Shown here: in pieces, positions 8,822 to 30,485 of the stretch
Layout of the letters: each line of letters opens with the position of its first letter
Numbering within the stretch: position 1 is the stretch's first letter
From: Chloroflexota bacterium
GTDB taxonomy: Bacteria; Chloroflexota; UBA6077; JAJPHF01
Assembly: GCA_035294645.1 (NCBI GenBank)
Contig: DATGKN010000164.1
Span: 99 to 64,098, forward strand
Length of the DNA: 64,000 nt
Direction of reading: 5' to 3'
Program-made: the position numbers and the translations under genes
The notes under the pieces: generated by a model
Seen by the model: the letters and a program-made list of their open reading frames with translations, nothing else
The model's database searches: none
What the model was told of the DNA's origin: nothing

Positions 8822-8845
8822 TGGGCGCCAGGATTGGACATAACG

Positions 8846-9159: not shown

Positions 9160-9179
9160 GATGATAATATGGATTATCA
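9160..9179. promoter_or_regulatory. AT-rich inverted repeat ATGATAAT-n4-ATTATCAT upstream of the small gene
   Basis: 8-bp perfect inverted arms separated by ATGG, the only AT-rich patch in this intergenic region. A TATACT -10-like hexamer on the minus strand at 9119-9124 lies between it and the 8846..9067 start. Confidence 0.3.
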
Positions 9180-9199
9180 TAAGCATGGCCGCGCCCGCC

Positions 9200-10507: not shown

Positions 10508-10585
10508 GGTCCGTGTGTCCGCCGCGACGCGGGGCCTTCCCTGGCAAACGCTGCGCGGCTCCCTCCTCGCAGAGTGGCGCGGGGA

Positions 10586-11680: not shown

Positions 11681-11841
11681 GCTCAGCCCCTTTCCAACCG
11701 CTGCGCGCCGTGGCCCTCGTCGCTATTATCGGCCGAGCGCCCGTAACCGCGTAGCCTCACTTCCCTGTAACCGGTTGCCCCGCCCGCCGATAATAGCCCA
11801 CAGGTCCGCCCCCGAGCGGCCGCGGCGCGGGCGGTGGTCGC

Positions 11842-15279: not shown

Positions 15280-15389
15280 CCGCCCGGGGGCGTGGCCCGC
15301 GCCACGCAGGCGCGCGGCGCGTCTGTGCTCCCCCACGTCGGGTGCCATACAATAGCGGCACGGTAGCCTGCCGCGGTGGGGGATGTGCC

Positions 15390-16538
15390 ATGCGGCCCAG
15401 GGGGAGCGGCGCGTGGGGGCTGGCGCTGGCCGTGCTGTTGACGGCCGCGTGTGCGCCGGCGCCCCGCACGCCGCCCACCGCCGGGCCAGCCACCCCCGCG
15501 CCATCGGTGAGCAGTCCGCCCACGCCGGCCGCCGCTCCGACGCCGCCTCCGGCAGGTCGCGTGCGCTTTGGTGGCCAGTACATCGCCGGGGACGTACCCG
15601 CGTTCGTGGCCGCCGAGCGCGGCTACTTCCACGAGGAGGGCGTGGAGGTCGCGTTCGAGCGGTTCGGCAACCAGACCGACATGGTGGCCGCACTGTCCCA
15701 GGGCCAGATCGACGCCGCGGGGGTGGGCGGCACCGTGCCGATGTTCAACGCGGTGGCGCGTGGTGTGCCCCTGAAAGTCGTGCTGGACAAGGGCACCTTC
15801 CGGCCCGGGTTCGGCTTCACCGCGCTGACAGCGCGCAAGGATCTCTACGACAGCGGCCGCTTGCGGCGGCTGGAGGACCTGCGCGGCCTCACGGTAGCCA
15901 TGCTGCCGCCGCCGCGTGGCACGGGCAACGCCGCCGCCCTGTGGGCGGGGCTCCAGCGCGTGGGCCTCACGTTCGACGACTTCACCGTGGTGGCGCTCAA
16001 CTTCCCGGACATGATCCCGGCGTTCGCCAACGGCGCCATCGACGCCGCGCTGATGGCCGAACCGTTCCTGTCGCGGGCGCTCGGCCAGGGCTCGGTGGTG
16101 CGCCTGATGGGCCAAGACGAGATGTACCCCAACTACACCGTCAGCGCCGTGTGCTTCACCGGCGCGCTGTACGCCGACCGCCCCACGGCGCGGGCGTTCG
16201 CGCGCGCCTACATTCGCGGCATCCGCGACTATCTGAGCGCGATGGCGCGGCCGGGCGACGACCCGGAGCGGCAGCGGATGGAAGCGCTGATGGCCGGGTA
16301 CACGGGCATCGACGCCGCCACCGTGCACGTGATGGTCCCGGCCAGCTTCAGCCCCAACGGGCTGCCCAACCGGGAGTCGCTCCTGTTCACTTACCAGTTC
16401 TTCCGCGACCAGGGCCTCATCCCCGAGCCCCTGTCAGACGCCGCAGTGGCGGGCATGTGGGGCACCGAGCTGGTCGAGGAGGTGCTGCGCGAGCTGGGCC
16501 GCTGGCCGGAGGACTGGGGCCTGCGCCCCGCCTCCTAA
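15390..16538 (+). CDS. Lipoprotein, NMT1/SsuA/TauA-family ABC-type substrate-binding protein (orphan; paralog 1 of 4)
   Basis: Lipobox LLTAAC followed by a Pro/Thr/Ala-rich linker, then an NMT1-like fold (...GVPLKVVLDKGTFRPGFGFTAL...FPDMIPAFANGAIDAALMAEPF...). Occupies the last 1149 nt of ORF-track frame 13281..16538. No permease or ATPase gene adjacent. Confidence 0.8.
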   Translation: MRPRGSGAWGLALAVLLTAACAPAPRTPPTAGPATPAPSVSSPPTPAAAPTPPPAGRVRFGGQYIAGDVPAFVAAERGYFHEEGVEVAFERFGNQTDMVAALSQGQIDAAGVGGTVPMFNAVARGVPLKVVLDKGTFRPGFGFTALTARKDLYDSGRLRRLEDLRGLTVAMLPPPRGTGNAAALWAGLQRVGLTFDDFTVVALNFPDMIPAFANGAIDAALMAEPFLSRALGQGSVVRLMGQDEMYPNYTVSAVCFTGALYADRPTARAFARAYIRGIRDYLSAMARPGDDPERQRMEALMAGYTGIDAATVHVMVPASFSPNGLPNRESLLFTYQFFRDQGLIPEPLSDAAVAGMWGTELVEEVLRELGRWPEDWGLRPAS

Positions 16539-16553
16539 CCAGCGCCCCGCCGC

Positions 16554-19139
16554 TCACGACTGGTCTCTGCTGGGCGCGCAGTCGTACAGTTGCCCGGGCG
16601 GCGGGCCGAATGGCCGTGCTGATGGGGTGCCGCCGTAGGCCGTGGCCTCCACCAGCTGGCAGTGGGCCTGCACCCAGGCCTGGCGGTCGGCGTGTCCGCC
16701 GGGCCCGGCCCCAGGCGGACCGCCCAGCAGCACGAACCGCAGCGCGCCAGCACGCACCAGGGCCGCGAGCTGGGCCGTCGTGGGCACCGGGTCGGCGCCA
16801 GCGAAGCCGCCCATCGCCAGCACCGGCTCGCCCGTGGCCAGGATCAGCGGCGCCGCGGCCATCGAGCCGGTCGTCGCCACCAGGTACGTCGCGCCGTCGC
16901 GGTGCGCCTGGAGGTAGGCGATGAGGCCCGGGCTGGTAGCGTCGGGGGGCGCCCCTGGTGGCCCCGGGGGCAGCCCGGGCGGCAGCGGCGGATTCCCGGC
17001 CACGGGCACGCCCAGGCCCGGGCCGAGCCCGGCGCCGGGTGGTGGTCCGAACGGCAGCCCGCCGGCCGCGCGCGGCCCCGCCTGGGGGTTCATCGCCAGC
17101 GCGGGCTGCTGAAGGGTCGCTACCCCCCAGGCCGCCGGCCCGAGCAGCAGCGCCGCCATGCCGAGCCCGAACGCGGCGACGCCTATCGTCCGTCGGCGGC
17201 CGCAGTGCGCCGCGATCAGGCCACCGCCGGCCAGCAGCGCGCCGCCCGCGATGACGCTCCCCAGCCACGGGTGCCACCCGCCGCGCGCCACCAGCACCGC
17301 GGGCCAGCCCGCGCCCAGCCCCAGGGCCAGGGGCAGCAGCCGCCCCGCCCAGGTTCGCTGCCGATAGGCGTCCCACAGCGTGGCCAGGCCCGTGCCCGCG
17401 AGGGCGGCGATGGCCGGGGCCAGGGCGGCGGTGTAGTAGGGATGGAAGATGCCCCGCATGCAACTGAACACCACGGCGTGGGCGACCAGCCAGCCGCCCC
17501 ACAGCAGGCACGCCGCGCGGGGGCCGTCGGTGCGCGGCCGGCGCCCGCGGCTGGCGAGCCCCACGGCCAGGCCGAGCGCGGCCAGGGGCAGCAGCCAGCT
17601 GATCTGATCGCCGACCTCCGCGTTGAATAGGCGCAGCCAGCCCGGCGGCCCGCCGAACCCGCCGCCGGGGCCCGGGGGCGGGCCGCCGGACGACAGCGCG
17701 GCACCTGGCGGCGGGGGCAAGGTGTCGCCAACGGCCCCCGGCGGCGCGCCGGCCGGGGGCGGTGCGTCCGGCGGGCCCCCGGGGCCCTGCCCCCACAGCC
17801 GGCCCAGCCCGTTGTAGCCGAGCGCCAGCTCGAAGGCGCTGTTGGTCTGGCTGCCGCCAATATATGGGCGGGCTTCCGGCGGCGTGAGCGCCACTGCCAG
17901 CGGCCACGCCGCCGACACCGCGGCCAGCAGCGTCCCAAACGCCAGCAGGTGGCCCAGGCGCCGCCGCAGGGTGCCCGGCGCGGCCACGAGGTACGTCAGC
18001 GCGCACGCCGGCACCACCAGGTACGCTTGCAGCATCTTGGTGGTGAATGCCAGCCCCACCAGCGCGGCGCTCGCCAGTAGCGGGCGCAGCCGCCCGCTCT
18101 CCACGGCCACCAGGAGGCACCCGCCGGCCCCCACCAGCAGCAGCACGAGCAGCGCATCGGGCAGGTTGGTGCGGTTGATGGCCACGCTCACCGGCGTGAG
18201 CGCCAGGATGAGCGCCGCGAGCAGCGCGGCCAGTGGCCCGTGGCTGCGGCGCACCGCCCAGTGCAGCGCCAGCACGGTGAGCACCCCTTCCACCACCTGC
18301 GGCAACAGCAGGCTGGTGCCCTGGAAGCCGAGCAGCCGCGCCGCCAGCGCCTGGAGCCACAGGGCTAGCGGGGGCTTGTCCACGGTGATGAAGCCGGCGG
18401 GATCGAACGCGCCGAACAGGAAATTCGACCAGCTCGCCAGCATGCTGCGCACCGCTGCGGCGTAGTAGGGGTTGCCCCAGCCCTCGCGCGTGATGCCCCA
18501 GCCGTACAACACCGCCGCCAGCGCGAGCACGCCGCTCAGCGCCGGTCGCTCCCAGCGCGGGGCGCCCGGTGCCGCCACGCCGTGGTGCCCGGCGGGCACG
18601 CCCGCGGAGGCTTGCTCGGCGCCCGAGGTGCCCGGCAGGCGGTCGGTGGGCGTGGGACACGGCAGGGCCGCGCGCTGCTGCACGCGCGGTGGCGCGCCAG
18701 CGGGCCGAAACACGATCCGATCGCCCAGCAGGAAGTTGGCGCCCGCGGCCGCCAGGATCCCCAGCGCTGCGGCCACGCTCGGCGGCAGCGCCGCCCGCGC
18801 GCCCGTGAACACGGCCCAGTTCAGCGCCGCGGTGCTGGCCATCGCCAGGTGGAACCGCGCCCACTGCCGCGCTAGCGCCGCGCCGGCCGCCTGGGGCGAA
18901 CGGCGATCGCGCCAGGTGAAGCCGGCGCTGAGCCCGAAGTTCACCTGGGTGGCCACGAGCAGCGCCGCGGCATTGGCCAGTAGCGGCGCCCACCCTAGCG
19001 CGAGCCCGACGTGCAGCCCGGCGAGCTGCACCAGGCTGGCCGCCGTGCCGGTGGCGGCGAAGCGGAACAGGCGAGGCCGGAACAGTGCGGGCCCGCGCGT
19101 CGCGCGGCTCGGCGCCGCCGGGGGGCAGCTAGCCAGCAT
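16554..19139 (-). CDS. Fusion of a GtrA-like flippase domain with a GT-C glycosyltransferase (GT39/ArnT/PMT-like) plus C-terminal Pro/Gly-rich extension
   Basis: N-terminal 4-TM GtrA-like segment (RFAATGTAASLVQLAGL...RFHLAMASTAALNWAVF...). Then a GT39/ArnT-type region (YGWGITREGWGNPYYAAAVRSM...FITVDKPPLALWLQALAARLLG...). Multiple TM helices and PPGxPP-rich loops. Start chosen at MLASCPP (11-nt overlap with the upstream GT2 stop); ORF-track start 19199. Confidence 0.7.
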   Translation of the reverse strand: MLASCPPAAPSRATRGPALFRPRLFRFAATGTAASLVQLAGLHVGLALGWAPLLANAAALLVATQVNFGLSAGFTWRDRRSPQAAGAALARQWARFHLAMASTAALNWAVFTGARAALPPSVAAALGILAAAGANFLLGDRIVFRPAGAPPRVQQRAALPCPTPTDRLPGTSGAEQASAGVPAGHHGVAAPGAPRWERPALSGVLALAAVLYGWGITREGWGNPYYAAAVRSMLASWSNFLFGAFDPAGFITVDKPPLALWLQALAARLLGFQGTSLLLPQVVEGVLTVLALHWAVRRSHGPLAALLAALILALTPVSVAINRTNLPDALLVLLLVGAGGCLLVAVESGRLRPLLASAALVGLAFTTKMLQAYLVVPACALTYLVAAPGTLRRRLGHLLAFGTLLAAVSAAWPLAVALTPPEARPYIGGSQTNSAFELALGYNGLGRLWGQGPGGPPDAPPPAGAPPGAVGDTLPPPPGAALSSGGPPPGPGGGFGGPPGWLRLFNAEVGDQISWLLPLAALGLAVGLASRGRRPRTDGPRAACLLWGGWLVAHAVVFSCMRGIFHPYYTAALAPAIAALAGTGLATLWDAYRQRTWAGRLLPLALGLGAGWPAVLVARGGWHPWLGSVIAGGALLAGGGLIAAHCGRRRTIGVAAFGLGMAALLLGPAAWGVATLQQPALAMNPQAGPRAAGGLPFGPPPGAGLGPGLGVPVAGNPPLPPGLPPGPPGAPPDATSPGLIAYLQAHRDGATYLVATTGSMAAAPLILATGEPVLAMGGFAGADPVPTTAQLAALVRAGALRFVLLGGPPGAGPGGHADRQAWVQAHCQLVEATAYGGTPSARPFGPPPGQLYDCAPSRDQS

Positions 19140-19992
19140 GGACACGCCTCCGCTCCGACGCCTGTGGTACCGCTGGCGCATCGGCCCGGCCCAGCTCACG
19201 GCGCAGCGACAGCAGCTCGGCCAGCGCGCGGGCGATCACCGCGGGCCGGGCGCCTGTGGCGCGGCCGGCGGTGCGCGGCAGGTGGCGCACCGGCCGCTCT
19301 TTCACCCGGAAGCCCGCGCGCCGCGCCTTGATCAGGAACTCGGCGCTGAACGCCGCGCCACGCGAGCGCACGGTGAGCCGCTCCCACACCGCGCGGCGGA
19401 ACAGCTTGAACGCGCAGTCGATGTCGCGCGCGGTGTAGCCGAACAGGGCGTGGACCAGCAGCCGCCAGCCCCAGGCGTTCAGCGTGCGCAGCGGCGGGTC
19501 GACCCGCGGGCACCGCCAGCCGATCACCAGGTCGGTGGACTCGTCGAGGTCGGCCAGGAAGTCCGCCAGCTCGCGGACATCGAACTGCCGGTCGGCGTCG
19601 GTGTAGAAGAGCAGCTGCTTGCGCGCGGCATCGAAGCCGCTGGCCAGCGCGGCGCCGTAGCCCTGATTGCGCTGGTGCGTGACGACGCGCAGGTGCAGCG
19701 CCGGCTCGCGGGCGCTCAGCGCCGCCAGCAGCCGACCAGTGGCATCGCGCGAGCCGTCGTCGACCACCACGATCTCGAAGTCGTCCACTAGGGCGCGCAG
19801 CACCGCGGCCAGCTCGCGGACGGCCGCCACGATGCAGGCTTCCTCGTTGTAGGCTGGCAGCACGGCCGAGAGGCTCAGCGGCTCGGCCGGCCCCGCTGGC
19901 CGCAGGGGGCGTACCGCCCTGGCGAGCTGGGGTAGGGGCCGCAGGGTAGACACGCGCGGCCCCTCAAGGGACAGAATGCTTCGCCCTGACAT
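19129..19992 (-). CDS. GT2-family polyprenol-phosphate sugar synthase (GtrB / Dpm1 / Ppm1-like)
   Basis: LSLSAVLPAYNEE...EIVVVDDGSRD...HQRNQGYGAALASG (DXD-type GT2-A motifs). ATG at 19992 preceded by GGGAGGAG. The 395-aa ORF-track version is over-extended. Confidence 0.8.
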   Translation of the reverse strand: MSGRSILSLEGPRVSTLRPLPQLARAVRPLRPAGPAEPLSLSAVLPAYNEEACIVAAVRELAAVLRALVDDFEIVVVDDGSRDATGRLLAALSAREPALHLRVVTHQRNQGYGAALASGFDAARKQLLFYTDADRQFDVRELADFLADLDESTDLVIGWRCPRVDPPLRTLNAWGWRLLVHALFGYTARDIDCAFKLFRRAVWERLTVRSRGAAFSAEFLIKARRAGFRVKERPVRHLPRTAGRATGARPAVIARALAELLSLRRELGRADAPAVPQASERRRVHAG

Positions 19993-20023
19993 GAGTCTCC
20001 TCCCTGGTCGCATGGACGTGCGC

Positions 20024-20302
20024 TCAGCCCGCCTGGGGCTGGGCGGCCTTCGGGGGGCGGCCCCGGCGGCGCGGCCGCCACTCCAGCGGGTTCGGTAGCG
20101 GCCGCACCGGCTGGACCTCGTCCAGGAACACTGCCCCGCCACAGTGCGCGCAGCGCACCTGCCAGAGCCAGCACACCTGCCGCACCGCGCGGCCCGGGAC
20201 GACCAGCACGCCGCGCTCGCCCGAGGACCCTTCGGACGACCAGGTCCAGGCGCCCGAGATGCGCCCGCACAGGTAGCAGCGGACTTCGGCGCAAAATCGC
20301 AT
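20024..20302 (-). CDS. Small zinc-ribbon protein (two CxxC pairs) with basic C-terminal tail
   Basis: CYLCG ... CAHCG. GGAGGA RBS 5 nt upstream of ATG. Same strand, 31 nt upstream of the GT2 gene. Confidence 0.55.
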   Translation of the reverse strand: MRFCAEVRCYLCGRISGAWTWSSEGSSGERGVLVVPGRAVRQVCWLWQVRCAHCGGAVFLDEVQPVRPLPNPLEWRPRRRGRPPKAAQPQAG

Positions 20303-20490
20303 CGGTTCCTCCTCACGTCGTGGGGCTGTGGTGCTATCCGCAGAGTACGGGGGCGGACCGGGCTCCTACATCCAGCGAAGGCGTACTCGTGGCCCGACCG
20401 CTTGGGTGGAGGCGCCGCTCACCCGAACGGGTCATCGGCCGGCGCGCGTGGGCCGCGGACGGGGGAACAGTGGGCAGGCGGCGCGGGGGG

Positions 20491-21198
20491 CTAGCGGGCG
20501 GGGAGCGGCGCGAGCGGCGGGCTCGCCGGCGCGGCGCTGCCGGGTGGGGGGAGCGCGCCGCCAGGCGGCGGCAACAGCCCGGCGCCCGGAGGGAGCCCAC
20601 CCAACGGTGGGGCGCCATCGCGGCTGAGGATCTGCACGCTCACGCCGCCCGCGGCGTCGCTGACGGCCACGAACTGGCCCGGCTGGAGCGCGCTGCGGTC
20701 CGCCGTGACCACTTCCTGCACGCGGGTGTCCGGCGCCAGCGGCACGCGCTGTTCGCCGAACGGGGTGGTGAGCACCAGGGTATCGCCCTCCACCGCGGCC
20801 ACTAGTCCTACCCGTGGCGCGCTCCCCGGCGGCAGGGTGCCCGGCGCGGGGAGTAGTGGGTCACTGACGCCGGTCGGCAAGGTCGCGCTCGCCGGCGCGC
20901 TAGCGGGCGCCGGCGGCAGGGCGGGCAGGGGCGTCACGGCCAGCGGCGGCGTCGGGCGGAACGCAGTTAGCCGCGCTGCCCCGCCGCCCAGCCCGGCCCC
21001 GACCACACAGGCGGCAGCGAGCAGCGCCCACCACGGCGCCCGGCGGAGCGGGCGGGCGGTTGGGGATAGGGCGCCAGCCCTGGCCAGCGCGGACGTGTCG
21101 CGCGGCGCCGCCCGCGCCCCGTCGGTCGCCACCGCCGTGGCCGCCGAAGGCTGTGCAGCTGGCCGGGCGTGATGATCCTGGTCTGCGCGCTCTGTCAT
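20491..21198 (-). CDS. Single-pass membrane protein with Pro-rich extracytoplasmic region and a small beta-rich domain
   Basis: TM WWALLAAACVVGAGLGG. Pro-rich linkers (PLPALPPAPASAPASATLP...; C-terminal GGLPPGAGLLPPPGGALPPPGS). Central segment VGLVAAVEGDTLVLTTPFGEQRVPLAPDTRVQEV...LQPGQFVAV resembles the beta-barrel/MP domain of HlyD-type adaptors. Confidence 0.5.
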   Translation of the reverse strand: MTERADQDHHARPAAQPSAATAVATDGARAAPRDTSALARAGALSPTARPLRRAPWWALLAAACVVGAGLGGGAARLTAFRPTPPLAVTPLPALPPAPASAPASATLPTGVSDPLLPAPGTLPPGSAPRVGLVAAVEGDTLVLTTPFGEQRVPLAPDTRVQEVVTADRSALQPGQFVAVSDAAGGVSVQILSRDGAPPLGGLPPGAGLLPPPGGALPPPGSAAPASPPLAPLPAR

Positions 21199-21231
21199 TA
21201 TGTCGCCTCACACGCTTGTACTCCGCCGGGG

Positions 21232-22497
21232 TCACTCGTAGCGCAGCGCCTGGATGGGGCGCAGCTGCGCGGCGCGCAGCGCGGGGTAGGTGCCGAAGAA
21301 CAGGCCCACGGCCACCGAGACGCCGAAGGCCAACAGCACAGCGTCGGGAGTCACCACCGCCTGCGCGTCCCGCGTGCCGGGCGGGCCGGGCAGTACCGCC
21401 ACCGCGCCCACGAAGCGCGCCGCGACCAAGCCCGCGCCGATCCCCAGCAGCCCGCCGCAGCTGCTTACTACCAGCGCCTCGATGAGGAACTGCACCAAGA
21501 TATCGCGCCGCCGGGCGCCCACTGCCTTGCGAATGCCGATCTCCCGCGTGCGTTCGGTGACCGACACCAGCATGATGTTCATGATGCCGATGCCGCCCAC
21601 TACCAGCGAGATGCCGGCGATGGCGCCCAACAGCAGCGTCATCGAGCCGCTGACCTGGCTGACAGTCCGCAGGAAATCTTCCTGGCTCTGGATGCTGAAG
21701 TCGTCCTGCACGACGCGGTGGCGCTGGCGCAGCAGCGCCCCGATCTCCGCCACGGCGCGCGCCATCTCTGCCTCGTCTGCCACCGAGACGTTGATCGTGG
21801 ACACCGTCTGCGCGCCCTGGACGTTGCGATTCGCCGCCACCCGCGCGATGTAGGTCGTCAGCGGCACGAACACCTGGTCGTCCGGGCTGCCGAAGCCCGT
21901 GCCGCCCTTGCTCTCCATCACCCCGATGACCGTGAAGATCACTCCCGTGCTGCCCGACACGCTGAGCCGCACGGCCTGACCGAGGGGGCTCCCGCCGGGG
22001 AACAGGTTGCGCGCTACCGTGGCCCCAAGCACCATCACGGCGCGGCGCTGCTCATACTGCTCGGCGGTGAAGAACTGCCCCGCCGCCGGCCGCCAGTTGC
22101 GGACCGCCGGGTAGCTGGGGTTGGTGGCCACGATGCGCGTGTTCCAGTTCTGGTTGCCGGCCACGAGCTGGCCGCTGCTACCCAGCTCGGGTGCCACGGC
22201 CTGCACCGAGCGCACCGCCTGCAGGATCGCCGCGGCGTCTTGCAGCGTCAGGGTCGCTGCGCTGCCCTGGGCGCCGCGCACCCCGCCCGATTGCGTGGAG
22301 CCGGGCCGGACGAAGAGAATGTTGGTGCCCAGGCTCTGGATCTGCTGCAAGATGCTGATCTGCGCGCCGCGCCCGACCGCCACCATGGCGATCACCGCGC
22401 CGACGCCGATGATCAGCCCCAGCATGGTGAGCAGCGCCCGCAGCTTGTTGGCCGCTAGCGCCCGCACCGCGATCCGCACGCTCTCCCACAGGTTCAT
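21232..22497 (-). CDS. MacB/FtsX-family ABC transporter permease (YknZ/MacB-like)
   Basis: N-terminal TM, large extracytoplasmic domain, three C-terminal TM helices. ...[31 protein letters not shown]... (FtsX signature). Confidence 0.85.
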
Positions 22498-23225
22498 GGG
22501 CGCCCCGCCTGCGCCGGCCGCGCCACCGGCGCATCGCTGCTGATCACCCCGTCCCGCAGCGTGATCACCCGCTGGGCATGCTCCGCGATGTCCTCCTCGT
22601 GCGTCACCAGCACCACCGTCAGCCCTCGCTCCCGATTCAGCGCCTGCAGCAGCCCCATGATCTCCTCGCTGGTCCGCGTGTCCAGCGCCCCGGTCGGCTC
22701 GTCCGCCAGTATCAGGCTCGGCTCCGTCACCAGCGCCCGCGCGATCGCCACCCGCTGCTGCTGGCCCCCCGACAGCTCCGTCGGCTTGTGGTGCGCCCGC
22801 TCCGCCAGCCCCACCGCCCGCAGCGCCGTCAGCGCCCGCTCCCGTCGGGGCCGGATGCCCCCGTAGAGCAGCGGCAGCTCCACCTGCTCCACCGCCGGCA
22901 GTCGCGGCAGCAGGTTGAAGCTCTGGAACACGAACCCCAGCTTGCGGTTGCGGATCCTCGCCAGCTCGTCGTCGCTAAGGTCCGCGACCTCCACCCCGTC
23001 CAGCTGGTAGCTGCCGCTGGTGGGCTGGTCGAGGCAGCCGATGATGTTCATCAGGGTGGACTTGCCCGACCCCGACGGCCCCATGATGGCCACGAACTCG
23101 CCGTGCTGGATGTCCAGCGACACCCCCCGCAGCGCGTGCACCGCGATGTCGCCCATCGTGTACACCTTCGTCACGTCGCGGATCCGGATGACCGTCTGGT
23201 CGGGTGCCGTGAGCAACTGCTCCAT
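22494..23225 (-). CDS. ABC transporter ATP-binding protein (MacB/LolD/YknY type)
   Basis: Walker [13 protein letters not shown] signature [15 protein letters not shown], Walker [15 protein letters not shown] at 23225 with GGAGGGGAG RBS; 4-nt overlap with the permease gene. Confidence 0.9.
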
Positions 23226-23279
23226 TGCCGGGTGCTCCCCTCCGTTTCTCACGGGCGGTGAGGCTGACCGGGCAGCGCG

Positions 23280-26111
23280 CTAGCGCGGGCCCGCGCCGCG
23301 CGCGCCGCCAGCGGCCGGGGGGGCGCCGGGGGGTGGGCCGCCGGGAGGCGGGGCGCCCGGGGGCGGCGCGCCCGGTGGCAGCAGCAGCCCCCCGACCATC
23401 GGGTTGCTGGTGTTCCCAATGACGGTTGGGAGGACCACCTGCTCGCCTTCGGCTAGGCCGAACGTGATCTCGGTCTGCTGCTCGTCGCTGAGGCCGCGCT
23501 GCACCGCGCGCGTCGCGATCTGGCCGTCGGCGGTCAGCACATCCACGACGTACCCGGGGCCCTGCTGGCGCAGCGCGCGGCTGGGCACTAGCAGGGCGTC
23601 GGCCTTCTGTGCGTAGATGATGGTGGCGGTGGCCGTCATGCCGGGCCAGATGTCGCGCTGGTCGTCCAGCGCGATGTACACCAGGTAGCTGGTCACGCCC
23701 TGGGAGGTGGTCCCCTGAGGGCTGAGCGCCGTCACCCGCCCCGGCACCACGCGCCCCGGCAGGGCGTCGAGGGTGAGCTGCACGGGTAGCCCGACCCGCA
23801 GGTTCGGTATGTCCACCTCCGCCACGCTGGCCTCGACGTGCAGCGCGTCGGTGCTCATCACGGTGATGGCGCCGCCGCTGTTGGTGGCCCCGCTGCTGCC
23901 GGAGGTCGTGCTGCCACTGGCGGACCCGGAGCTGCCGCCACCGATGCCGCCGGATTGCTCGCCGACGTTGTAGCCCACTTGGCTGACGACGCCCGCGAAC
24001 GGGGCGACAAGTACGGCGTGGTCGAGGTTGCGCTGCGCCTGGGTCAGGCGGGCGCGGGCATCGTCCACGGCGGCGAGCTGGGCGGCGAGGTCTTGCTCGG
24101 TGTAGGGCCGTAGCTTGAGCTGGGTGTCGGCTTGCGCTTGGGCCACGGCCTGGCGCTGCTGCTCGAGGGCCTGGGGGCTGGTGGGCTGGCGCTTGAGGGC
24201 GAGCTGCGCCTCCGCCTGGCGCACGGCCTGGCGCTGGGCCTCCAGGTCCTCGTCGGTGTAGGGGCGGCGCGCCTTGGCCAGCTGCTCCTCGGCCTGGCGC
24301 ACGGCGGCCTCGGCCTGGGCGATCTCCTCCGGCCGCGGCCCCGCCTGGAGCTGTTGCAGCTTCACCTCGGCCGCTTGCAGGTTGGCGCGGGCGGTCGCCA
24401 CGTTGGCCTCGGCGGCGGCGAGGTCGTCGGGCTTGGGCTGGGCGCGTAGGTCGGCCAGCTTGGCCTCGGCGCTGCGCACGCCCACGCGGGCGGCTTCCAC
24501 GGCGGCTTGCGCGGCGGCGATCGCTTCCGGCCGCGGGTTGCGCAGCTCCTCCAGGTGGGCGAGCGCGCTCTGGTAGTTGTTGCGCGCCTGCTCGAGGGCG
24601 CTTTGGGCCTCGGCCAGGTCGGCGGGATTGGGGTTGTACAGCTGGTCGAGCTTGGCCTGGGCGCTGGCCACTGCCGCCAGGGCCGCGTTCACGTTCGCCT
24701 GGGCGCCGGGCAGGCCGTTGTTGCGCCCGCCGGCTTGCAGGCCCTGCAGCGTCGATTGGGCGCGCAGCAGCGTGGCGTTGGCGCTGCTCACGGCCGCCTG
24801 GGCGCTGTACAGGTCCTGGGGGCTGACCTGGGACGCCCCGCCGGCCACGCCGCCGCTGACGGTTGCGTTGGTCGCGCTGGTCGCGCTGGCACCGCTGGTG
24901 TTCGCGCCGGCGGCCGTGCCCGTGGCGGGCGCGGTGCTGGCGGCCGCGCTGGTGGTGCCCGCGCTGGAGCCGCCGGGCTGCCCCTGGAGCTGCCCCAGGC
25001 GCGCCTGCGCGGCCTGCAGGTTGCGGGCGGCGGTGAGCACGTCCTCGCCCGCGGCGGCCATCTCCCAGGCGCCGGTCTGGGCGCGGGTCTGGGCCAGGGT
25101 GGTCTGCGCGGAGCGGAGCTGGGCCTGGGCCTGCTGGAGCTGGGCCTGGGCCACCGCCACGTCGGCCGCCGAGGGGTTGCGCAGCTGGCGCAGGCGGGCC
25201 TCGGCGCTCTGCTGGGCGGCCAGCGCGTTGTCCACCGCGACCTGGGCGGCCACCAGATCGGCCACCGTGGGGTGGAGCAGCTTGTCGAGCTGGTCCTCGG
25301 CGCTGCGCAGGTTGGCCCGCGCGGAGGCGAGCTGCGCCTCGGCGGCCTCGAGGTCGGCCGGGGTGGCGCCCGCGCGCACCTGTTCCAGCCGGGCGAGGTT
25401 GCTGGCCAGGGTAGCGCGGGCGCTGTCCACGGCGGCCTGGGCGGCGGCCAGGTCGGCCGGCAGCGGCGAGTTGCGCAGGTCCTGCAGCTTGGCCCGCGCG
25501 CTGTCGAGCGCCGCCTGCGCCGCTGCGATGTCCTCGGGGCGTCCCTGCGCCTCCATGCTGCGCAGCTTGGCCACCGCGGCGTCCAGCTGGGCCTGGGCGG
25601 TGGCGATGTCCTCGGATCGCGGCGTGGCCAGGTCGGCCAGGCGCGCCTGCGCCTGCGCCAGCTGCGCTTGCGCGCTAGCGACCTCCTCGGGCCGCGCGCC
25701 GTTGAGCAGCGTCTGGAGCTTGGCCTCGGCCTGCGTCACCGCCGCCTGGGCCTGGCGGTACTGGAGCTCCAGCTCGTCGGTATCCAACTGCGCCAGCACC
25801 TGGCCGGCCTCGACGCGGTCGCCGACTTTCACCGCGACGCTGGCCACCCGCCCGCTGACCAGGAAGTTGAGCTTCGTGCTAGTATCGGCCACCACCGTGC
25901 CCGCGCTGCTCACGCTGGCTTGGATCGGGCCGCGAACGGCCGGCACGGTCTGCACCTCCCGGGGCGCGGGCGTGGTCAGGCGCGCGTACGCGGCGTAGCT
26001 CAGCCCGGCGCTGAGGACCAGCGCCAGGCCGAGATAGAGCCACTGCGTGGGACGCAGGCCCGCGCCGACCCCGCGCAGGGTGGCGCCGGGGCGTGCGGCA
26101 GCTGCTCGCAT
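23280..26111 (-). CDS. HlyD/MacA/YknX-family membrane-fusion (periplasmic adaptor) protein with a hugely expanded alpha-helical repeat region (943 aa)
   Basis: N-terminal TM (WLYLGLALVLSAGLSYAAYA). Beta-strand (VSSAGTVVADTSTKLNFLVSGRVASVAVKVGDRVEAGQVLAQLD). About 20 tandem 25-33-aa helical units of type P-[ED]-[DE]-[IL]-A-x-AQAxLDxAxAxL. Canonical hairpin end and apfdGvV-like motif (LVAPFAGVVSQV). C-terminal beta domain and GAPPPGAPPPGGPPPGAPP tail. [13 protein letters not shown]. Confidence 0.8.
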   Translation of the reverse strand: MRAAAARPGATLRGVGAGLRPTQWLYLGLALVLSAGLSYAAYARLTTPAPREVQTVPAVRGPIQASVSSAGTVVADTSTKLNFLVSGRVASVAVKVGDRVEAGQVLAQLDTDELELQYRQAQAAVTQAEAKLQTLLNGARPEEVASAQAQLAQAQARLADLATPRSEDIATAQAQLDAAVAKLRSMEAQGRPEDIAAAQAALDSARAKLQDLRNSPLPADLAAAQAAVDSARATLASNLARLEQVRAGATPADLEAAEAQLASARANLRSAEDQLDKLLHPTVADLVAAQVAVDNALAAQQSAEARLRQLRNPSAADVAVAQAQLQQAQAQLRSAQTTLAQTRAQTGAWEMAAAGEDVLTAARNLQAAQARLGQLQGQPGGSSAGTTSAAASTAPATGTAAGANTSGASATSATNATVSGGVAGGASQVSPQDLYSAQAAVSSANATLLRAQSTLQGLQAGGRNNGLPGAQANVNAALAAVASAQAKLDQLYNPNPADLAEAQSALEQARNNYQSALAHLEELRNPRPEAIAAAQAAVEAARVGVRSAEAKLADLRAQPKPDDLAAAEANVATARANLQAAEVKLQQLQAGPRPEEIAQAEAAVRQAEEQLAKARRPYTDEDLEAQRQAVRQAEAQLALKRQPTSPQALEQQRQAVAQAQADTQLKLRPYTEQDLAAQLAAVDDARARLTQAQRNLDHAVLVAPFAGVVSQVGYNVGEQSGGIGGGSSGSASGSTTSGSSGATNSGGAITVMSTDALHVEASVAEVDIPNLRVGLPVQLTLDALPGRVVPGRVTALSPQGTTSQGVTSYLVYIALDDQRDIWPGMTATATIIYAQKADALLVPSRALRQQGPGYVVDVLTADGQIATRAVQRGLSDEQQTEITFGLAEGEQVVLPTVIGNTSNPMVGGLLLPPGAPPPGAPPPGGPPPGAPPAAGGARGAGPR
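24010..25750 (-). repeat. Degenerate in-frame tandem coding repeats (about 75-100 nt units) encoding the coiled-coil repeats of the adaptor, interrupted by Ser/Thr/Gly/Ala low-complexity linkers
   Basis: Repeated protein units listed under the adaptor CDS. DNA copies are diverged (not a recent duplication), visible as recurring gcctgggc / gcgctg / ctcggc blocks and as LGLGLG-type artefacts in other frames. Confidence 0.6.
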
Positions 26112-26153
26112 GAAGCTCTCCTCCCGTGGGGTGGATGGGATCCGTGGCCGGGG

Positions 26154-26687
26154 CTAGCGCGGTGGTAGCCCCTGCGGCGGCGGGCCCGGTGGCGGACCGC
26201 CCGGCGGTGGGGGAGGAGGCGCGGGATTACCGTTAACGACCATCGGGGCGGGAGGCGCGGGATTAGCGATCAGCTGGGCGGTGAACTGCTGCGCGCGCTG
26301 CAGGATCGTGTCGGCGTCGCTTTGGCTGAGGCGCCCGGCGCTCACCTGCTCGGCGAGCCAGCTCGCCGCGGCGCTGGTCATCGCATTGAGCAGCGTGCTC
26401 TGGTCGATGCCCCGGGCCGCGGCCAGGTCCGCGAGGCTGCGCCCGTTGCGTCCCTCGGCCCACAGTTGTTCCTGCGTGAGCCCGAGCAACGCCAGGGCCG
26501 CCTGCATGCCGGCATCCATGGCCCCTCGGTCGCTTTCCGAGGGCGGCGGGCCCGGGGGCGGGCCGCCCGGGGGGGGCCCGCCGGGGGGAAAGGTGGGGCC
26601 GCCCTGGGCGAGCGCGCTGCCAGCCAGCACTGCCAGGCCTAGCCCGGCGCCCAGCGCCCCCCGTCCGAGCTTGTCGCGGAGCCGCAT
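26154..26687 (-). CDS. Secreted Pro-rich protein with a helical core containing an LTxxQ-like motif (first gene of the exporter cluster)
   Basis: Signal peptide LGLAVLAGSALAQG. N-terminal GGPPPGGPPPGPPP and C-terminal PPPPPPGGPPPGPPPQGLPP tracts. Core ...LLGLTQEQLWAEG... GAGGAGG RBS 7 nt before ATG. Confidence 0.6.
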   Translation of the reverse strand: MRLRDKLGRGALGAGLGLAVLAGSALAQGGPTFPPGGPPPGGPPPGPPPSESDRGAMDAGMQAALALLGLTQEQLWAEGRNGRSLADLAAARGIDQSTLLNAMTSAAASWLAEQVSAGRLSQSDADTILQRAQQFTAQLIANPAPPAPMVVNGNPAPPPPPPGGPPPGPPPQGLPPR

Positions 26688-26946
26688 CGACTAACCTCCT
26701 CGTCGGTCTGCCGGAAGCGCCCTGCCCGCGGGCCGTGGCGAGCTTCCGCGGCTAGGGTAGGCGACGTGTCCGGCGGCGGGCATCGGGCGGCGGGGTAACT
26801 CGCCCCTGATCGGTTTCGGCGGCGATCGCCCTACCCAAATGGGTGAGGCGCGGTCGCCTGTTCGGGGGAGCGCGCGCGGCCCGCGCGGACGATGGGGGAG
26901 ACTGGCCGATGCGCTACGATAGCCGGGTAGCGGACGAGGGGCGGAG

Positions 26947-28953
26947 ATGAGCGACCTGGCGGCAACTCCCGGGCCGCTAGCCGACGAGCGGCAGCGGCGC
27001 ACCCGACTGCTATGGCGGACGCTACCGGTCCTGTGGCTGCCCGCGGTGGCGGCGCTAGTCATGTGGCTGGTGCTGCACGTGGTGTTCGGCTGGCCGCCGG
27101 TCGCCGGCGGCGGCGAGTCTCTCCCCCCCGCCGAGCCCAGCCCGGAGCGGGTGGTGGTGCTCGTACAGGTGCTCCCGCCCGGTTCCGGCACGCCCCCCTC
27201 GCCGCTGCCGCTGCTGCTGGCGCAGCTTCTGGTGCCGCTGCTGCTAGCCGGGTTGCTGCTCGTGCTGCTGCGCGCCGGCCGCACTACCACGGCGGCGTTG
27301 GTGCTGGTGGGGGTGTGGACGCTGTTCTTCACCGTCGGGGTGTTGAGCAGCGGGGTGATGAGTTTCTGGCCGGCGTCGCTTGTGGTGCCGATCTGTGCCG
27401 CGGCGCTGCTGCTGGGGAGTCGGGCCAGCATGGCCCTGGCCGCGCTCGCCACCCTGCTGGTCGTGGGGAGCGTGTGGCTGGAGAGCCACGGTGTGCGCCT
27501 GCACCAGCTGTTCGGGCCTTTGGTGTTTCCCCTGGGGCGGCCGCCTCCTCCGCCCCCCCCCGGGCTGGTGGCGCCGGGCGAGCTCGTCCAGCGGCTGGGT
27601 GCCCCCCCGCCGCCGCTGCTGGAGGCCGGCTACTGGATCGGCCTGTTCTGGACCGTGGCGGCGCTCACCTCCCTGCTGGCCGACAGCCTGCAGCGCGCGC
27701 TGGGCGAGAGCCGCGCCCAGGCCCGCGCCCTGCGCCGGCTGAGCAGCACCCTGGAGCAGCGCGTGGCCGAGCAGACGACCGAGCTGGCGCAGCGCGCCGA
27801 GCGCGCCGAGGCGCTGTACGAGGTGAACCGCGCCCTGACCAGCACCCTCGACCTCCCTACCGTGTTGAACTTGATCGCCGAGCAGGCCGCGCGCCTGCTG
27901 CGCTTCGGGGCCTCGCTGGTCCTGTTGGACCAGGGCCAGCGGCAGTTCGCCCGGGTGGCCGGCTACCGCGAGCCCGCCGGGGTGGTCCCGGCGCTGGCCG
28001 CCCACGATGTGGCGCTGGCGCGCGTCTGCCACGAACGCCAGCCGGGAGTGATCGCCCTGGGGCCACCAGACTTGCCGACGCCGCTGGACGCGCTCGCGCT
28101 GCCCCTGCGCTATGGCACTGAGGTCAGTGGCGTGCTGGTGTTGGTCGATCGGGCGCGCGGCGCCGCGCTGGGGCCCGACGACCTGGCATTGGCCGAGGGC
28201 TTCGCCGATCAGGCGGCAGTGGCGATCGCCAACGCCCGCTTGCTCCACCAGGTGCGCGAGGCCGCCACGCTGGAGGAGCGCGCGCGGCTGGCCCGCGAGA
28301 TCCACGACGCGCTCGCCCAGGGCCTCACCGGCATCGTGGTCCAGCTCGGCGCGCTCGAGCGGGCCCTGGCGCGGGCACCCGGCGAGGCGGCCCGCCATCT
28401 GGAGCTGGCCCAGCGAATGGCGCGCGAGGCGCTGGCCGAGGCGCGGCGCTCGGTGTGGAACCTCCGCTCGCCCTTGCTGGAGCGCGGCGACCTGGGCGAC
28501 GCGCTGCGCAGCCTCGCCGCGCGCCCGCCGCAACCGGGTATCGCCGCCCACTTCACCCAGCGGGGCACGCCGTGGCCGCTGGCGGCTGCGGCGGAGGGCG
28601 CGCTGCTCCGCGTGGCGCAGGAGGCGCTGGCCAACGTGGCCAAGCACGCCCAGGCCACGGCAGTCGCTATGACCCTGGAGTATGCCCCGGAGGGCGTTCG
28701 GCTCGTCGTGCAGGACAATGGCGTCGGGTTCCCCGCCGGGGTGCTGGACCAGCAACGCGACGGCGACTTGCCGTGGGGCGGCTTCGGCCTGCGGGGAATG
28801 CGCGAGCGGCTGCAGGCGCTCGGCGGCTGTCTGGAGCTGACCAACGCGGGGGGCGCTCGGGTGGTCGCCACGGTCCCCCGAGCGGCGGCGCAGCAGCCCG
28901 CCCGGCTGCTGGCGGGCGCGGGGGCAAGTCGCCTGAACGGGGAGGAGGCGTGA
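26947..28953 (+). CDS. Polytopic membrane sensor histidine kinase with GAF domain and HisKA_3 dimerisation domain (NarL-partner type)
   Basis: About 8 predicted TM helices in the first 300 aa. GAF-like region. HisKA_3 H-box ERARLAREIHDALAQGLTGIVVQL. ATPase G-boxes (DNGVGFPAG...GGFGLRGMRERLQALGG). Divergent from the exporter cluster. Confidence 0.8.
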   Translation: MSDLAATPGPLADERQRRTRLLWRTLPVLWLPAVAALVMWLVLHVVFGWPPVAGGGESLPPAEPSPERVVVLVQVLPPGSGTPPSPLPLLLAQLLVPLLLAGLLLVLLRAGRTTTAALVLVGVWTLFFTVGVLSSGVMSFWPASLVVPICAAALLLGSRASMALAALATLLVVGSVWLESHGVRLHQLFGPLVFPLGRPPPPPPPGLVAPGELVQRLGAPPPPLLEAGYWIGLFWTVAALTSLLADSLQRALGESRAQARALRRLSSTLEQRVAEQTTELAQRAERAEALYEVNRALTSTLDLPTVLNLIAEQAARLLRFGASLVLLDQGQRQFARVAGYREPAGVVPALAAHDVALARVCHERQPGVIALGPPDLPTPLDALALPLRYGTEVSGVLVLVDRARGAALGPDDLALAEGFADQAAVAIANARLLHQVREAATLEERARLAREIHDALAQGLTGIVVQLGALERALARAPGEAARHLELAQRMAREALAEARRSVWNLRSPLLERGDLGDALRSLAARPPQPGIAAHFTQRGTPWPLAAAAEGALLRVAQEALANVAKHAQATAVAMTLEYAPEGVRLVVQDNGVGFPAGVLDQQRDGDLPWGGFGLRGMRERLQALGGCLELTNAGGARVVATVPRAAAQQPARLLAGAGASRLNGEEA

Positions 28954-29573: not shown

Positions 29574-29629
29574 CCGCCGGGGCTCTCGCCGCCCGCCCCT
29601 GGGCGCCCGCTGGGCGAACAACGGCTCTG

Positions 29630-30409: not shown

Positions 30410-30485
30410 AGCCCTCCACCCAGGCCCCCGCGCCTCTTCGCGTTCCCCCCAACGCCGCGGAGGGGGGCGACGCGGGGACAGTGCC

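Follow-up and report, generated by a model that had tools for sequence, protein, structure and literature searches.

A MacB-type exporter cassette and a YkcBC/Gtr-type glycosylation module arranged head-to-tail beside a two-component system in a Chloroflexota genome

We analyzed a row of eight minus-strand genes (P1–P8) within a 64,000-nucleotide stretch of DNA from an uncultured Chloroflexota bacterium (hereafter the window), which an initial annotation had interpreted as one unit coupling the export of proline-rich proteins to their glycosylation. In the reading that we favor, to which we assign a probability of about one half, the row falls into two envelope modules, each of a known kind and separable from the other, that lie head-to-tail beside a two-component system and serve as two effectors of one response, such that neither module would need the other. 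Probably, therefore, the row does not encode novel machinery for both the export and the glycosylation of proline-rich proteins. Based on gene spacing, on the recurrence of the combination and on how often either module type is found together with two-component systems, we infer probable co-transcription of the two modules, or joint control by the adjacent kinase and regulator.

Gene layout and the adjoining two-component system

All eight open reading frames (8/8) were recovered on the minus strand at the coordinates first proposed, and the main domain calls stand: a Pfam search of each protein, as suggested in the initial annotation, returned HlyD, ABC_tran, MacB, GT2, GtrA and PMT_2 domains. 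The re-derived spacings likewise agree with the earlier description of a tight row save for one gap. From P1 to P8, successive genes are 42 and 27 nt apart, overlap by 4 nt, are separated by 33, 188 and 10 nt, and finally overlap by 11 nt, the last overlap growing to 71 nt if P8 starts at GTG 19199. Third-position GC content (0.85–0.94) tracks exactly the called frames, among which the 92-aa open reading frame of P6 gave the weakest coding signal.

The 188-nt gap (20303-20490, minus strand) coincides exactly with the boundary between the exporter cassette, or module A (P1–P5, 20491-26687, minus strand: a secreted orphan, adaptor, ATPase, permease and DUF5666 protein), and the glycosylation module, or module B (P6–P8, 16554-20302, minus strand: a 4-Cys orphan, a GT2 and a GtrA::GT-C fusion). 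Because of this position, the gap could hold a separate promoter. Our scan of the gap revealed neither a promoter-like nor a terminator-like site, the sole promoter-like match being located inside the ABC ATPase gene. Similarly, no stable RNA structure was found in the gap (z = +1.7), and no motif beyond chance was common to the gap and the region upstream of P1. The exact placement of the gap and the lack of a common upstream motif are both in line with unrelated envelope modules that came to lie side by side by chance and have orientation alone in common. We consider such chance neighborhood unlikely, as the single orientation of all genes and the lack of a terminator-like site speak against it, as do the recurrences described below.

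Divergent to the row, and separated from it by a 259-nt intergenic region, is the plus-strand gene of a sensor histidine kinase (26947-28953), in synteny with the close relative L102, whose multi-pass N-terminus carries a PPPPPPP loop and precedes GAF, HisKA_3 and HATPase_c domains (Pfam). Its stop codon is overlapped by the start of the gene for a NarL/LuxR-type response regulator (28950-29573, plus strand; Pfam Response_reg and GerE). That this two-component system acts as controller of the row, as originally proposed, is plausible, since systems of this kind neighbor modules of either type in unrelated genomes, adjoining the GT module in L108, L109, L114, L116, L119 and L120 and the MacB cassette in L098, L067 and L079.

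The exporter cassette and its proline-rich proteins

Pfam and PDB matches agree that module A is a MacB-type ABC exporter cassette of a well-known kind, in accordance with the earlier assignment to the MacB/YknXYZ type with a HlyD/MacA-like adaptor. P2 (23280-26111, minus strand) is a 943-aa MacA/HlyD-type membrane fusion protein that matches HlyD_3, HlyD_D23 and Biotin_lipoyl_2 in Pfam, as well as NCBIfam models. Its N-terminal TM helix and lipoyl domain are followed by nine helices of ~20–30 residues each, a disordered Ser/Thr/Gly-rich insert (residues 378-427), a second set of nine helices, beta-barrel and membrane-proximal domains, and a disordered Pro/Gly tail. The positions of insert and tail are conserved, and homologues of 600–950 aa are common in Chloroflexota. 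Sequence searches against the PDB matched MacA and Spr0693, and the top Foldseek matches of the AF2 model (pLDDT 76.8) were MacA in MacAB-TolC.

The MacB/LolD-family ABC ATPase P3 (22494-23252, minus strand; ABC_tran 121 bits in Pfam, best NCBIfam models MacB, LolD and DevA) has intact Walker A, signature and Walker B motifs, and the MacB-type four-TM permease P4 (21232-22497, minus strand; MacB_PCD 176 bits and FtsX 76 bits in Pfam) contains the periplasmic core domain and matches MacB (5LIL, 5GKO, 5NIK) and Spr0695 (5XU1) in the PDB. ATPase and permease are 82% and 64% identical, respectively, between the window and L098, and the trio of membrane fusion protein, ABC ATPase and MacB permease was present in nearly all of 80 MacB loci. 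By analogy to MacAB, YknXYZ and Spr0693-0695, cytoplasmic ATP hydrolysis would drive motion of the extracytoplasmic domain, which would in turn remove a peptide or amphiphile, by expulsion or extraction, from the outer face of the membrane via the adaptor, the MacA-like protein with its unusually long 18-helix domain cooperating with the ATPase and the four-TM permease.

According to the initial annotation, P1 and P5 are exported by this pump and O-glycosylated by a GT39/Pmt enzyme using a polyprenol-P-sugar. Pro/Gly tracts are indeed concentrated in the locus (5/10 locus proteins vs 3/36 others in the window, Fisher p = 0.007) and the adaptor has Ser/Thr-rich inserts, yet we regard this model as very improbable, as several features of the two presumed substrates point elsewhere. 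P1 (26154-26687, minus strand), a 177-aa secreted protein whose ATG is preceded by a GAGGAGG Shine-Dalgarno sequence, carries a Sec-type signal peptide that terminates in ALA-QG, and P5 is anchored by a TM helix; neither thus needs a MacB pump. P1 had been described as an LTxxQ protein, an assignment that we reject: no Pfam or NCBIfam model was matched, CpxP/Spy-type included, and its core is instead one copy of a widespread, DUF2680/YckD-related helical repeat of ~80 aa, matched by 2993 representative clusters, whose multi-copy homologues pass the DUF2680 cutoff. Among 120 fetched loci, P1 was present solely in the near-identical L102 and L103, making it a lineage-specific orphan. The PPPG tracts that flank its core are encoded by 15-nt tandem repeats (at 26537-26588). 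The Pro tracts of the two presumed substrates are such slippage repeats, nearly devoid of Ser/Thr and of differing length between 98%-identical relatives, and at the corresponding sites relatives are rich in Gly instead of Pro.

P5 (20491-21198, minus strand) is a 235-aa single-pass membrane protein. From its cytoplasmic N-terminus, one TM helix leads via a Pro-rich linker to a DUF5666-like beta domain, which is followed by a Pro/Gly tail. Its own DUF5666 match is weak (E 0.085); the orthologous genes in L098 (BLASTP E = 5e-6) and L002 pass the cutoff, and the adaptor-like beta domain attributed to it earlier was thus replaced by a DUF5666-type assignment. Using a custom HMM, we located the P5-type domain directly after MacB in five lineages besides that of the window (L002, L042, L067, L098-100 and L108). 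As judged from these neighborhoods, P5 is a recurrent accessory of MacB cassettes, including cassettes that have no GT module. The view of the Pro-rich P1 and P5 as substrates is thus not supported by their sequences or their distribution.

The glycosylation module and its association with the cassette

Module B is, by the domains identified in it (GT2, GtrA and GT-C), a YkcBC/Gtr-type "three-component" glycosylation module, which bears out the earlier call of a polyprenol-phosphate-sugar pathway. P7 (19129-20013, minus strand, ATG start) matches Glycos_transf_2 (84.5 bits, Pfam) and, all below cutoff, the NCBIfam models ArnC, Dol-P-hexose transferase and PpgS. Its domain match identifies it as a GT2 (GT-A fold) of the polyprenyl-phosphate-sugar synthase type, and a GT2 gene lies directly upstream of GT-C in >20 related loci. 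P8 (16554-19139, or to 19199 with the GTG start; minus strand), an 861-aa GtrA::GT-C fusion that matches NCBI HLI29163.1 from a Chloroflexota MAG at 100%, consists of a four-helix GtrA domain (GtrA_DPMS_TM, 52 bits), a disordered linker and a GT-C part with PMT_2 (97 bits) and YkcB_C (102 bits; all Pfam). Disordered Pro/Gly loops occupy residues 453-492 and 692-732 (AF2 model pLDDT 74.6), and a FITVDKPP loop is invariant across the family. Its previous classification as GT39/Pmt was dropped in favor of the PMT_2/YkcB type, since P8 scores 18.8 bits against a Pmt family cutoff of 800, no PMT_4TMC domain was found, and the closest structure is ArnT. This also weighs against O-glycosylation of P1 and P5 by a Pmt enzyme. 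In the pathway that we propose, the GT2 would load a sugar onto polyprenyl phosphate at the inner side, the GtrA domain would help the lipid-linked sugar cross the membrane, and the GT-C domain fused to it would pass the sugar to an outside acceptor, with a lipid or glycopolymer no less likely in this role than a protein.

The remaining gene, P6 (20024-20302, minus strand; GC3 0.86), ends 10 nt before the GT2 gene, and its ATG follows a GAGGAGG Shine-Dalgarno sequence by 6 nt. The two CxxC pairs on which its earlier description as a zinc ribbon was based are present, along with a basic tail; the family assignment itself found no match in Pfam or NCBIfam. As neither a homologue nor a CxxC open reading frame was found upstream of GT2 in other loci, P6 is probably lineage-specific and its product cytoplasmic.

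The eight genes do not behave as one conserved unit. None of the 80 MacB loci (0/80) had a GT-C gene within 10 kb, L098, the closest exporter relative on a long contig, has no GT module, and a full MacB cassette occurs in just 3 of the ~22 GT-C loci with long flanks. The cassette hence recurs in Chloroflexota without module B, and module B recurs widely without module A. The components of module B occur in four fusion states: GT2|GtrA::GT-C (window and P0002), GT2::GtrA|GT-C (L087, L108, L109 and L116-L120), a GT2/GtrA/GT-C triple fusion (P0056) and three separate genes (L105). MacB cassettes rank with the most abundant transporter cassettes and are plentiful in genomes of this kind, so chance could account for part of the co-location; a rough estimate from cassette copy number in general gives ~1.5 loci expected within 10 kb, compared with 3 observed. 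Against chance alone, the same component set is again immediately adjacent, although rearranged, in the distant genome L108, whose MacB shows just 38% identity and whose cassette belongs to the same rare DUF5666 subtype. The association also persists at ~60% identity in the P0002 contig, which contains the set in a rearranged layout. With these two recurrences, a functional link, most simply shared regulation, remains plausible.

The recurrences in L108 and P0002 could alternatively mean a direct pathway link. Here, the GT module would glycosylate a membrane-anchored lipid, lipoglycan or lipoprotein at the outer face, and the MacB cassette would extract the product outward via the long adaptor, much as LolCDE acts on lipoproteins or DevBCA on heterocyst glycolipids. 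Adjacency in two distant lineages with differing layouts, the link kept in P0002, MacB-family ATPases or permeases beside GT modules in L084/L095 and L087, and the action of MacB-type pumps on outer-face substrates (PMC5985334) are consistent with such coupling. We nevertheless hold it to be a doubtful explanation, given that both module families are mostly found alone, that ~5 kb and two opposite-strand genes part the modules in P0002, and that the Pfam search returned no lipid-synthesis gene candidates in the locus. Moreover, the long adaptor would not be part of a conserved coupling, as the L108 adaptor has just 394 aa. Overall, short gaps, the lack of a terminator-like site, two-component neighbors and the L108 recurrence make shared control of two separable modules plausible.

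Comparison with known systems

Multi-component transmembrane glycosylation systems include YkcB/YkcC of Bacillus subtilis, GtrA/GtrB/GtrC, CsbB-GtcA-YfhO, GtlA-GtcA-GtlB and ArnC-ArnT (PMC8035078), and the YkcBC acceptor is likewise not established (PMC8035078; bioRxiv 10.1101/2022.08.30.505962). Module B shares with YkcB/YkcC-type systems a GT2 polyprenyl-P-sugar synthase, a GtrA-family domain and a GT-C with PMT_2 and YkcB_C, as well as adjacent GT2 and GT-C genes and ArnT as nearest solved structure. It differs in its Chloroflexota host, the orphan 4-Cys protein ahead of it, the adjoining two-component system and MacB cassette, and the fusion of GtrA to the GT-C N-terminus, a GtrA domain being present in the same protein in just 5 of the 120 best homologues. 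In actinobacterial Ppm1/Pmt O-mannosylation, a GT2-made polyprenol-phosphate-sugar is consumed by an outer-face GT-C, a pairing that is also predicted for module B; P8, however, fails Pmt models, and, unlike in Ppm1/Pmt, nothing else found at the locus points to a protein acceptor.

Module A resembles MacAB-TolC and the Gram-positive MacAB-like pumps YknWXYZ and Spr0693-0694-0695 (PMC5985334, PMC4887032, PMC5768738) in its split ATPase, its four-TM permease with periplasmic core and its MacA-like adaptor, with MacB and MacA as best PDB matches. In contrast to these pumps, its 943-aa adaptor has 18 short helices split by a disordered Ser/Thr-rich insert and a Pro/Gly tail, and in place of YknW the cassette has a DUF5666 single-pass protein as accessory. 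The scan of neighboring genes revealed no gene for an outer-membrane factor.

In heterocystous cyanobacteria, the MacB/DevC-type exporter DevBCA/HgdBC and its membrane fusion protein are tied to glycolipid deposition (PMC6161253). The DevB, DevC and DevA models score far below cutoffs here, polyketide/glycolipid synthesis genes are absent, and the glycosyltransferase of that pathway is cytoplasmic, whereas here it is a GT-C. Module A has the same combination of a MacB/DevC-type ABC exporter and membrane fusion protein, with weak NCBIfam DevA and DevB matches, and DevBCA/HgdBC provides a precedent for a MacB-like pump cooperating with a glycosylation pathway.

Two gene modules in a co-directional minus-strand locus

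Eight ORFs are present on the minus strand between positions 16554 and 26687 of the window, exactly where the initial annotation had placed them, and are successively separated by 42 nt, 27 nt, a 4-nt overlap, 33 nt, 188 nt, 10 nt and an 11-nt overlap. Third-position G+C (0.85–0.94, in a window of 74% G+C overall) matches exactly the frames of these eight ORFs, the coding signal being weakest for the 92-aa product P6 (20024–20302). The P6 start codon is preceded by a ribosome-binding site (GAGGAGG, 6 nt before the ATG), and the same GAGGAGG precedes P1 (26154–26687). The last encoded protein, P8 (16554–19139), is 100% identical to NCBI entry HLI29163.1 (“MAG TPA: Chloroflexota bacterium”, 66.7-kb contig). 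The 188-nt gap (20303–20490) divides the locus into five exporter-associated genes (P1–P5) and three glycosylation-associated genes (P6–P8). Folding of this gap indicated no structure (z = +1.7), comparison of the regions upstream of P1 and P6 for a shared operator gave nothing above chance, and an Rfam scan of 15000–30500 returned zero matches. A promoter and terminator scan of 16300–27100, which is uninformative at 74% GC, yielded zero terminators and a single weak promoter-like match, which falls within the ATPase gene. The convergent neighbouring gene (15383–16538, plus strand) codes for an NMT1-like lipoprotein of the substrate-binding type, whose linker is rich in Pro, Thr and Ala (TPPTAGPATPAPSVSSPPTPAAAPTPPPAG). 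Signalling genes are densely packed at 4757–15279 and comprise a 1354-aa PAS/GAF hybrid kinase, a GAF-HD protein, a receiver-kinase fusion and a 1160-aa dCache/HAMP/GAF/PAS kinase.

The assignment of a MacB/YknXYZ-type exporter with a HlyD-type adaptor is borne out by all three of its core components. P4 (21232–22497) is a four-TM permease with a MacB periplasmic core domain (MacB_PCD PF12704, 175.9 bits; FtsX PF02687, 76 bits), and its top PDB matches are MacB 5LIL (E = 3.5e-60) and pneumococcal Spr0695 5XU1. Its cognate ATPase, P3 (22494–23252), is of the MacB/LolD type (ABC_tran, 121 bits; top NCBIfam models MacB, LolD and DarD) and is encoded by a gene overlapping the permease gene by 4 nt. 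The 943-aa P2 (23280–26111) combines the lipoyl, beta-barrel and alpha-helical domains of an adaptor (Pfam HlyD_3, HlyD_D23 and Biotin_lipoyl_2; TIGR01730 RND_mfp, 128.9 bits against a cutoff of 94.9), with MacA within MacAB-TolC as the top Foldseek match. In its AF2 model (pLDDT 76.8), a TM helix, the lipoyl domain and nine short helices are followed by a disordered Ser/Thr/Gly-rich insert (residues 378–427), nine more helices, beta domains and, at the end, a disordered tail of Pro and Gly. Chloroflexota adaptors of 600–950 aa have such a disordered, Ser/Thr-rich segment inserted midway through their helical domain. No TolC/OEP-type outer-membrane duct was found among the window genes scanned; such a duct is required for the tripartite pumps of diderms and is not expected with a single membrane. 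Exporters of this family work by mechanotransmission, with the outer membrane face as their site of action (PMC5985334, PMC5768738), and, judging from this established family knowledge, the window exporter would operate in the same way.

The proposed polyprenol-phosphate glycosylation module is likewise sustained. P7 (19129–20013) contains a clear GT2 domain (84.5 bits, Pfam), and its top NCBIfam models, ArnC, Dol-P-hexose transferase and PpgS, are all polyprenyl-phosphate-sugar synthases, each scoring far below its cutoff. P8 is a GtrA domain (PF04138, 52.2 bits, residues 46–164 of the 881-aa form, four helices in the model) fused to a GT-C enzyme with PMT_2 and YkcB_C domains; it shows the GT-C fold, its first outer loop bearing the conserved acidic motif, and catalytic-loop residues of the GT-C family are conserved. 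A search of the PDB with P8 as a single sequence gave zero matches; with the P8 family profile, ArnT was the only match (E = 1.7e-10). ArnT is the nearest solved fold, and membership in the ArnT family itself is excluded by score (equivalog model, 20 bits against a cutoff of 567). P6 contains two CxxC pairs and matches nothing in Pfam, NCBIfam or the fetched loci. Systems of the Gtr/YkcBC type have an extracytoplasmic acceptor, for instance LTA, WTA, O-antigen or lipid A. In these systems, the GT2 enzyme charges polyprenyl phosphate with the sugar, GtrA assists its translocation and transfer takes place outside through the GT-C enzyme, the acceptor of the YkcB family being unknown even for B. 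subtilis YkcBC (PMC8035078). By analogy with this family, P7 would load polyprenyl phosphate, the GtrA domain of P8 would aid translocation and its GT-C domain would transfer the sugar outside. Loss of YkcBC in B. subtilis alters vancomycin and beta-lactam susceptibility (bioRxiv 10.1101/2022.08.30.505962), which fits a reading of the module in terms of envelope defence.

Proline-rich proteins and the glycosylation-substrate model

The initial annotation had joined the two gene sets into one pathway, in which the proline-rich proteins P1 and P5 are exported by the MacB pump and O-glycosylated by a GT39/Pmt enzyme. This model is not supported with regard to the enzyme, P5 or the tracts. As for the enzyme, P8 reaches 18.8 bits with NCBIfam PrMnsylTfPmt (cutoff 800) and 19.7 bits with Pfam PMT (cutoff 22.7) and is devoid of the PMT_4TMC domain, so that neither the curated Pmt models nor the PMT plus PMT_4TMC architecture of a strict GT39 enzyme is matched.

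P5 (20491–21198), previously thought to carry an adaptor-like beta domain, is instead a single-pass protein with a DUF5666-like beta domain. Its own score against PF18914 (DUF5666) is 13.6 bits, with a cutoff of 27, and the syntenic genes reach 29.8 bits in L098, the closest long-contig relative of the exporter, and 30.3 bits in L002, one of the two closest species-representative MacB loci; an HMM built from these three genes recovers P5 with E = 7e-23, a value that is partly circular, P5 being among the seeds. The gene immediately after MacB is a DUF5666 gene in L002, L042, L067 and L098–L100; in L079, the DUF5666 gene is located upstream of the cassette. All these loci are from Chloroflexota. 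Because DUF5666 genes adjoin MacB cassettes in these other Chloroflexota, P5 is to be regarded as a recurrent accessory of the exporter and not as a glycosylation substrate, and DUF5666 single-pass proteins in general as recurrent accessories of MacB cassettes.

P1 is a secreted protein of the Sec type. The initial annotation had labelled it an LTxxQ protein; a relationship to the CpxP/Spy LTXXQ proteins was rejected, zero LTXXQ Pfam matches being obtained even at E values up to 10. The P1 core consists of one copy of an approximately 80-aa helical repeat of a DUF2680-related family; 2993 representative clusters carry this repeat, mostly in 2–7 copies, and multi-copy members score above the DUF2680 (YckD) cutoff. 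The family was reached by exhaustive HMMER searching, the word-indexed homologue search having returned one near-identical protein only. In two homologous proteins of about 1200 aa (P0242 and P0300), an N-terminal trypsin-like protease is fused to six or seven repeats of the P1-core type.

PPP tracts are enriched at the locus, being present in P1, P2, P5, P8 and the neighbouring kinase (5/10 locus proteins versus 3/36 others in the window, Fisher p = 0.007). These Pro tracts sit in predicted disordered regions. The PPPG tracts are encoded by 15-nt tandem repeats of 3.5–4 copies, at 23320–23379 for the adaptor tail and at 26537–26588 for P1, and the length of the adaptor tail differs in L102, a 98%-identical relative. 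Moreover, the homologous positions in relatives are Gly-rich (e.g. PGGFGGGPG), and the PPPG tracts are almost without Ser or Thr. As slippage repeats of this composition, they were rejected as a sign of glycosylation substrates. In composition, the linker of the NMT1-like lipoprotein (TPPTAGPATPAPSVSSPPTPAAAPTPPPAG) comes closer than these PPPG tracts to what is typical of O-glycosylated linkers.

In other loci, too, the extracytoplasmic regions of module proteins, the sensor loops of kinases included, are characterised by Gly/Pro-rich segments. The extracytoplasmic sensor regions of the kinases in L109, L116, L119 and L120, four comparison loci carrying the glycosylation module, start with Gly/Pro-rich low-complexity segments (residues ~45–90; SRNPPPGGRVPPPG in L119), and the window kinase (26947–28953, plus strand) contains GRPPPPPPPG (residues ~205–235). 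These kinase segments resemble the tracts of GT-C loops, adaptor tails and DUF5666 linkers. Such segments may do no more than mirror how disordered linkers of the envelope are composed in high-GC bacteria.

Exporter and glycosylation modules in other genomes

For the exporter, 80 loci were fetched around the closest MacB permeases (one genome per species, 42–56% identity), and the combination MFP–ABC–MacB proved nearly universal among them. In L098, the ATPase is 82%, the permease 64% and the adaptor 53–62% identical to the window proteins; this locus comprises adaptor, ATPase, MacB, DUF5666, response regulator, kinase and C39-like peptidase genes, and zero glycosylation genes.

The glycosylation genes likewise travel together: the GT2 gene lies directly upstream of GT-C in more than 20 loci, and GT2, GtrA and GT-C were encountered in four states (GT2 next to a GtrA::GT-C fusion, a GT2::GtrA fusion next to GT-C, a triple fusion, and three separate genes). 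This genetic linkage of the three components, through adjacency and the four fusion states, is strong evidence that genes 6/7–8 form a Gtr/YkcBC-type module of their own. On the Arthrobacter sp. YA7-1 conjugative plasmid pYA7-1b (L117, 2455–14919), a GT2/GtrA plus GT39 pair is located inside a Flp/Tad pilus cluster, which could be a pilin-glycosylating use of the module in this lineage. On a Streptomyces sp. NBC_01454 plasmid (L112, 6891–11767), a PMT_2-type GT39 gene follows pgsB and pgsC (poly-gamma-glutamate synthesis) and an NlpC/P60 gene. Most matches in the plasmid collection were distant PMT_2 proteins in unrelated contexts.

A full MacB cassette near the glycosylation module was found in 3 of about 22 long-flank loci, namely the window, the P0002 contig and L108. 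The P0002 contig, which encodes a GT-C enzyme 60% identical to P8, keeps both modules, with approximately 5 kb and two opposite-strand genes between them, and includes genes for 95-aa and 148-aa proteins. The contexts of P0002 and P0126 are known from gene tables, and that of P0001 from contigs of 3–4 kb. Stand-alone YkcB_C proteins of 446 and 90 aa adjoin the glycosylation module of the P0002 contig (7758–9098 and 14092–14364, locus coordinates), indicating that the YkcB_C domain exists outside GT-C enzymes too. L108 (2456–15150; GCA_025964715.1, JAOPYH010000036.1) belongs to a distant genome of 72% G+C, its MacB being 38% identical. Here, response regulator and kinase genes are followed by a cassette in the order DUF5666 ← MacB ← ABC ← MFP (394 aa), oriented divergently to GT2::GtrA → GT-C, after which come a GH12 gene and another YkcB-type GT-C gene.

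The same component set thus recurs, rearranged, in L108, and both modules are present in the P0002 contig; GT2 or GT-C genes within 10 kb are absent from all 80 MacB loci. By chance, a MacB cassette within 10 kb would be expected in what we take, roughly and from general copy-number knowledge, to be 1.5 of 22 loci, as compared with the three observed. That the modules should be immediate neighbours twice, with the rarer cassette subtype (DUF5666), is harder to ascribe to chance, a consideration that is post hoc. In L084 (4008–8425) and L095 (4632–8841), MacB/LolD-like ATPases 63% identical to the window ATPase lie divergent from a GT2 plus GT-C pair; these ATPase genes adjoin genes for Nramp-family membrane proteins without a MacB permease, an odd pairing, and on account of these neighbours were not accepted as MacB cassettes.

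Probable shared regulation and relation to known systems

In the window, a two-component system consisting of the kinase and a LuxR-type regulator (28950–29573, plus strand) lies divergently beside P1. Two-component systems are also found beside the DUF5666-type MacB cassettes of L098, L067 and L079, and in L002 (7236–8135) and L003 (4885–5995), which are the closest two of the species-representative MacB loci, an ECF sigma factor gene with a putative anti-sigma gene takes their place ahead of the exporter cassette. On the glycosylation side, an OmpR-type response regulator and a HAMP kinase are encoded directly beside pairs of GT2::GtrA and YkcB-type GT-C genes in several Actinomycetota lineages (L109, 3290–11424; L114, ~8705–12870; L116, 8193–13863; L119, 8721–14375; L120, 5642–12046), an arrangement of which we found no description in the literature. 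YkcB-type GT-C modules are very often paired with a dedicated two-component system. Taken together, shared regulation is the best-supported link between the exporter and the glycosylation module, and the most economical explanation is that both belong to the usual targets of envelope signal transduction and, in some lineages, have been gathered under one sensor. If the modules are only co-regulated, the locus is an ordinary instance, from an uncultured phylum, of envelope-stress genes organised in modules.

A more far-reaching proposal would be an undescribed recurrent envelope system of high-GC single-membrane bacteria (Chloroflexota, probably Actinomycetota), in which a dedicated two-component system controls a YkcB-type GT-C module together with a MacB plus DUF5666 “extractor”, and in which the pump would handle either the glycosylated product or the Gly/Pro-rich disordered segments common to all extracytoplasmic components (adaptor tail, DUF5666 linkers, GT-C loops and kinase sensor loops), these segments serving as recognition element or acceptor. 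We regard this proposal as unlikely, at roughly one chance in eight. Should exporter and glycosylation module share one molecule, the locus would give a lead to the missing YkcB-family acceptor and to a new glycoconjugate extraction route in single-membrane bacteria, a route open to testing in culturable relatives, among them Arthrobacter and Nonomuraea.

A pairing of a MacB cassette with such a glycosyltransferase module was not found described in the literature searched. What is unusual at the locus are the GtrA::GT-C fusion, the very long adaptor with its Ser/Thr-rich insert, the DUF5666 accessory and two orphan proteins. Overall, both modules of the locus are of known kinds, represented here by new members, and their combination has recurred independently at least once.
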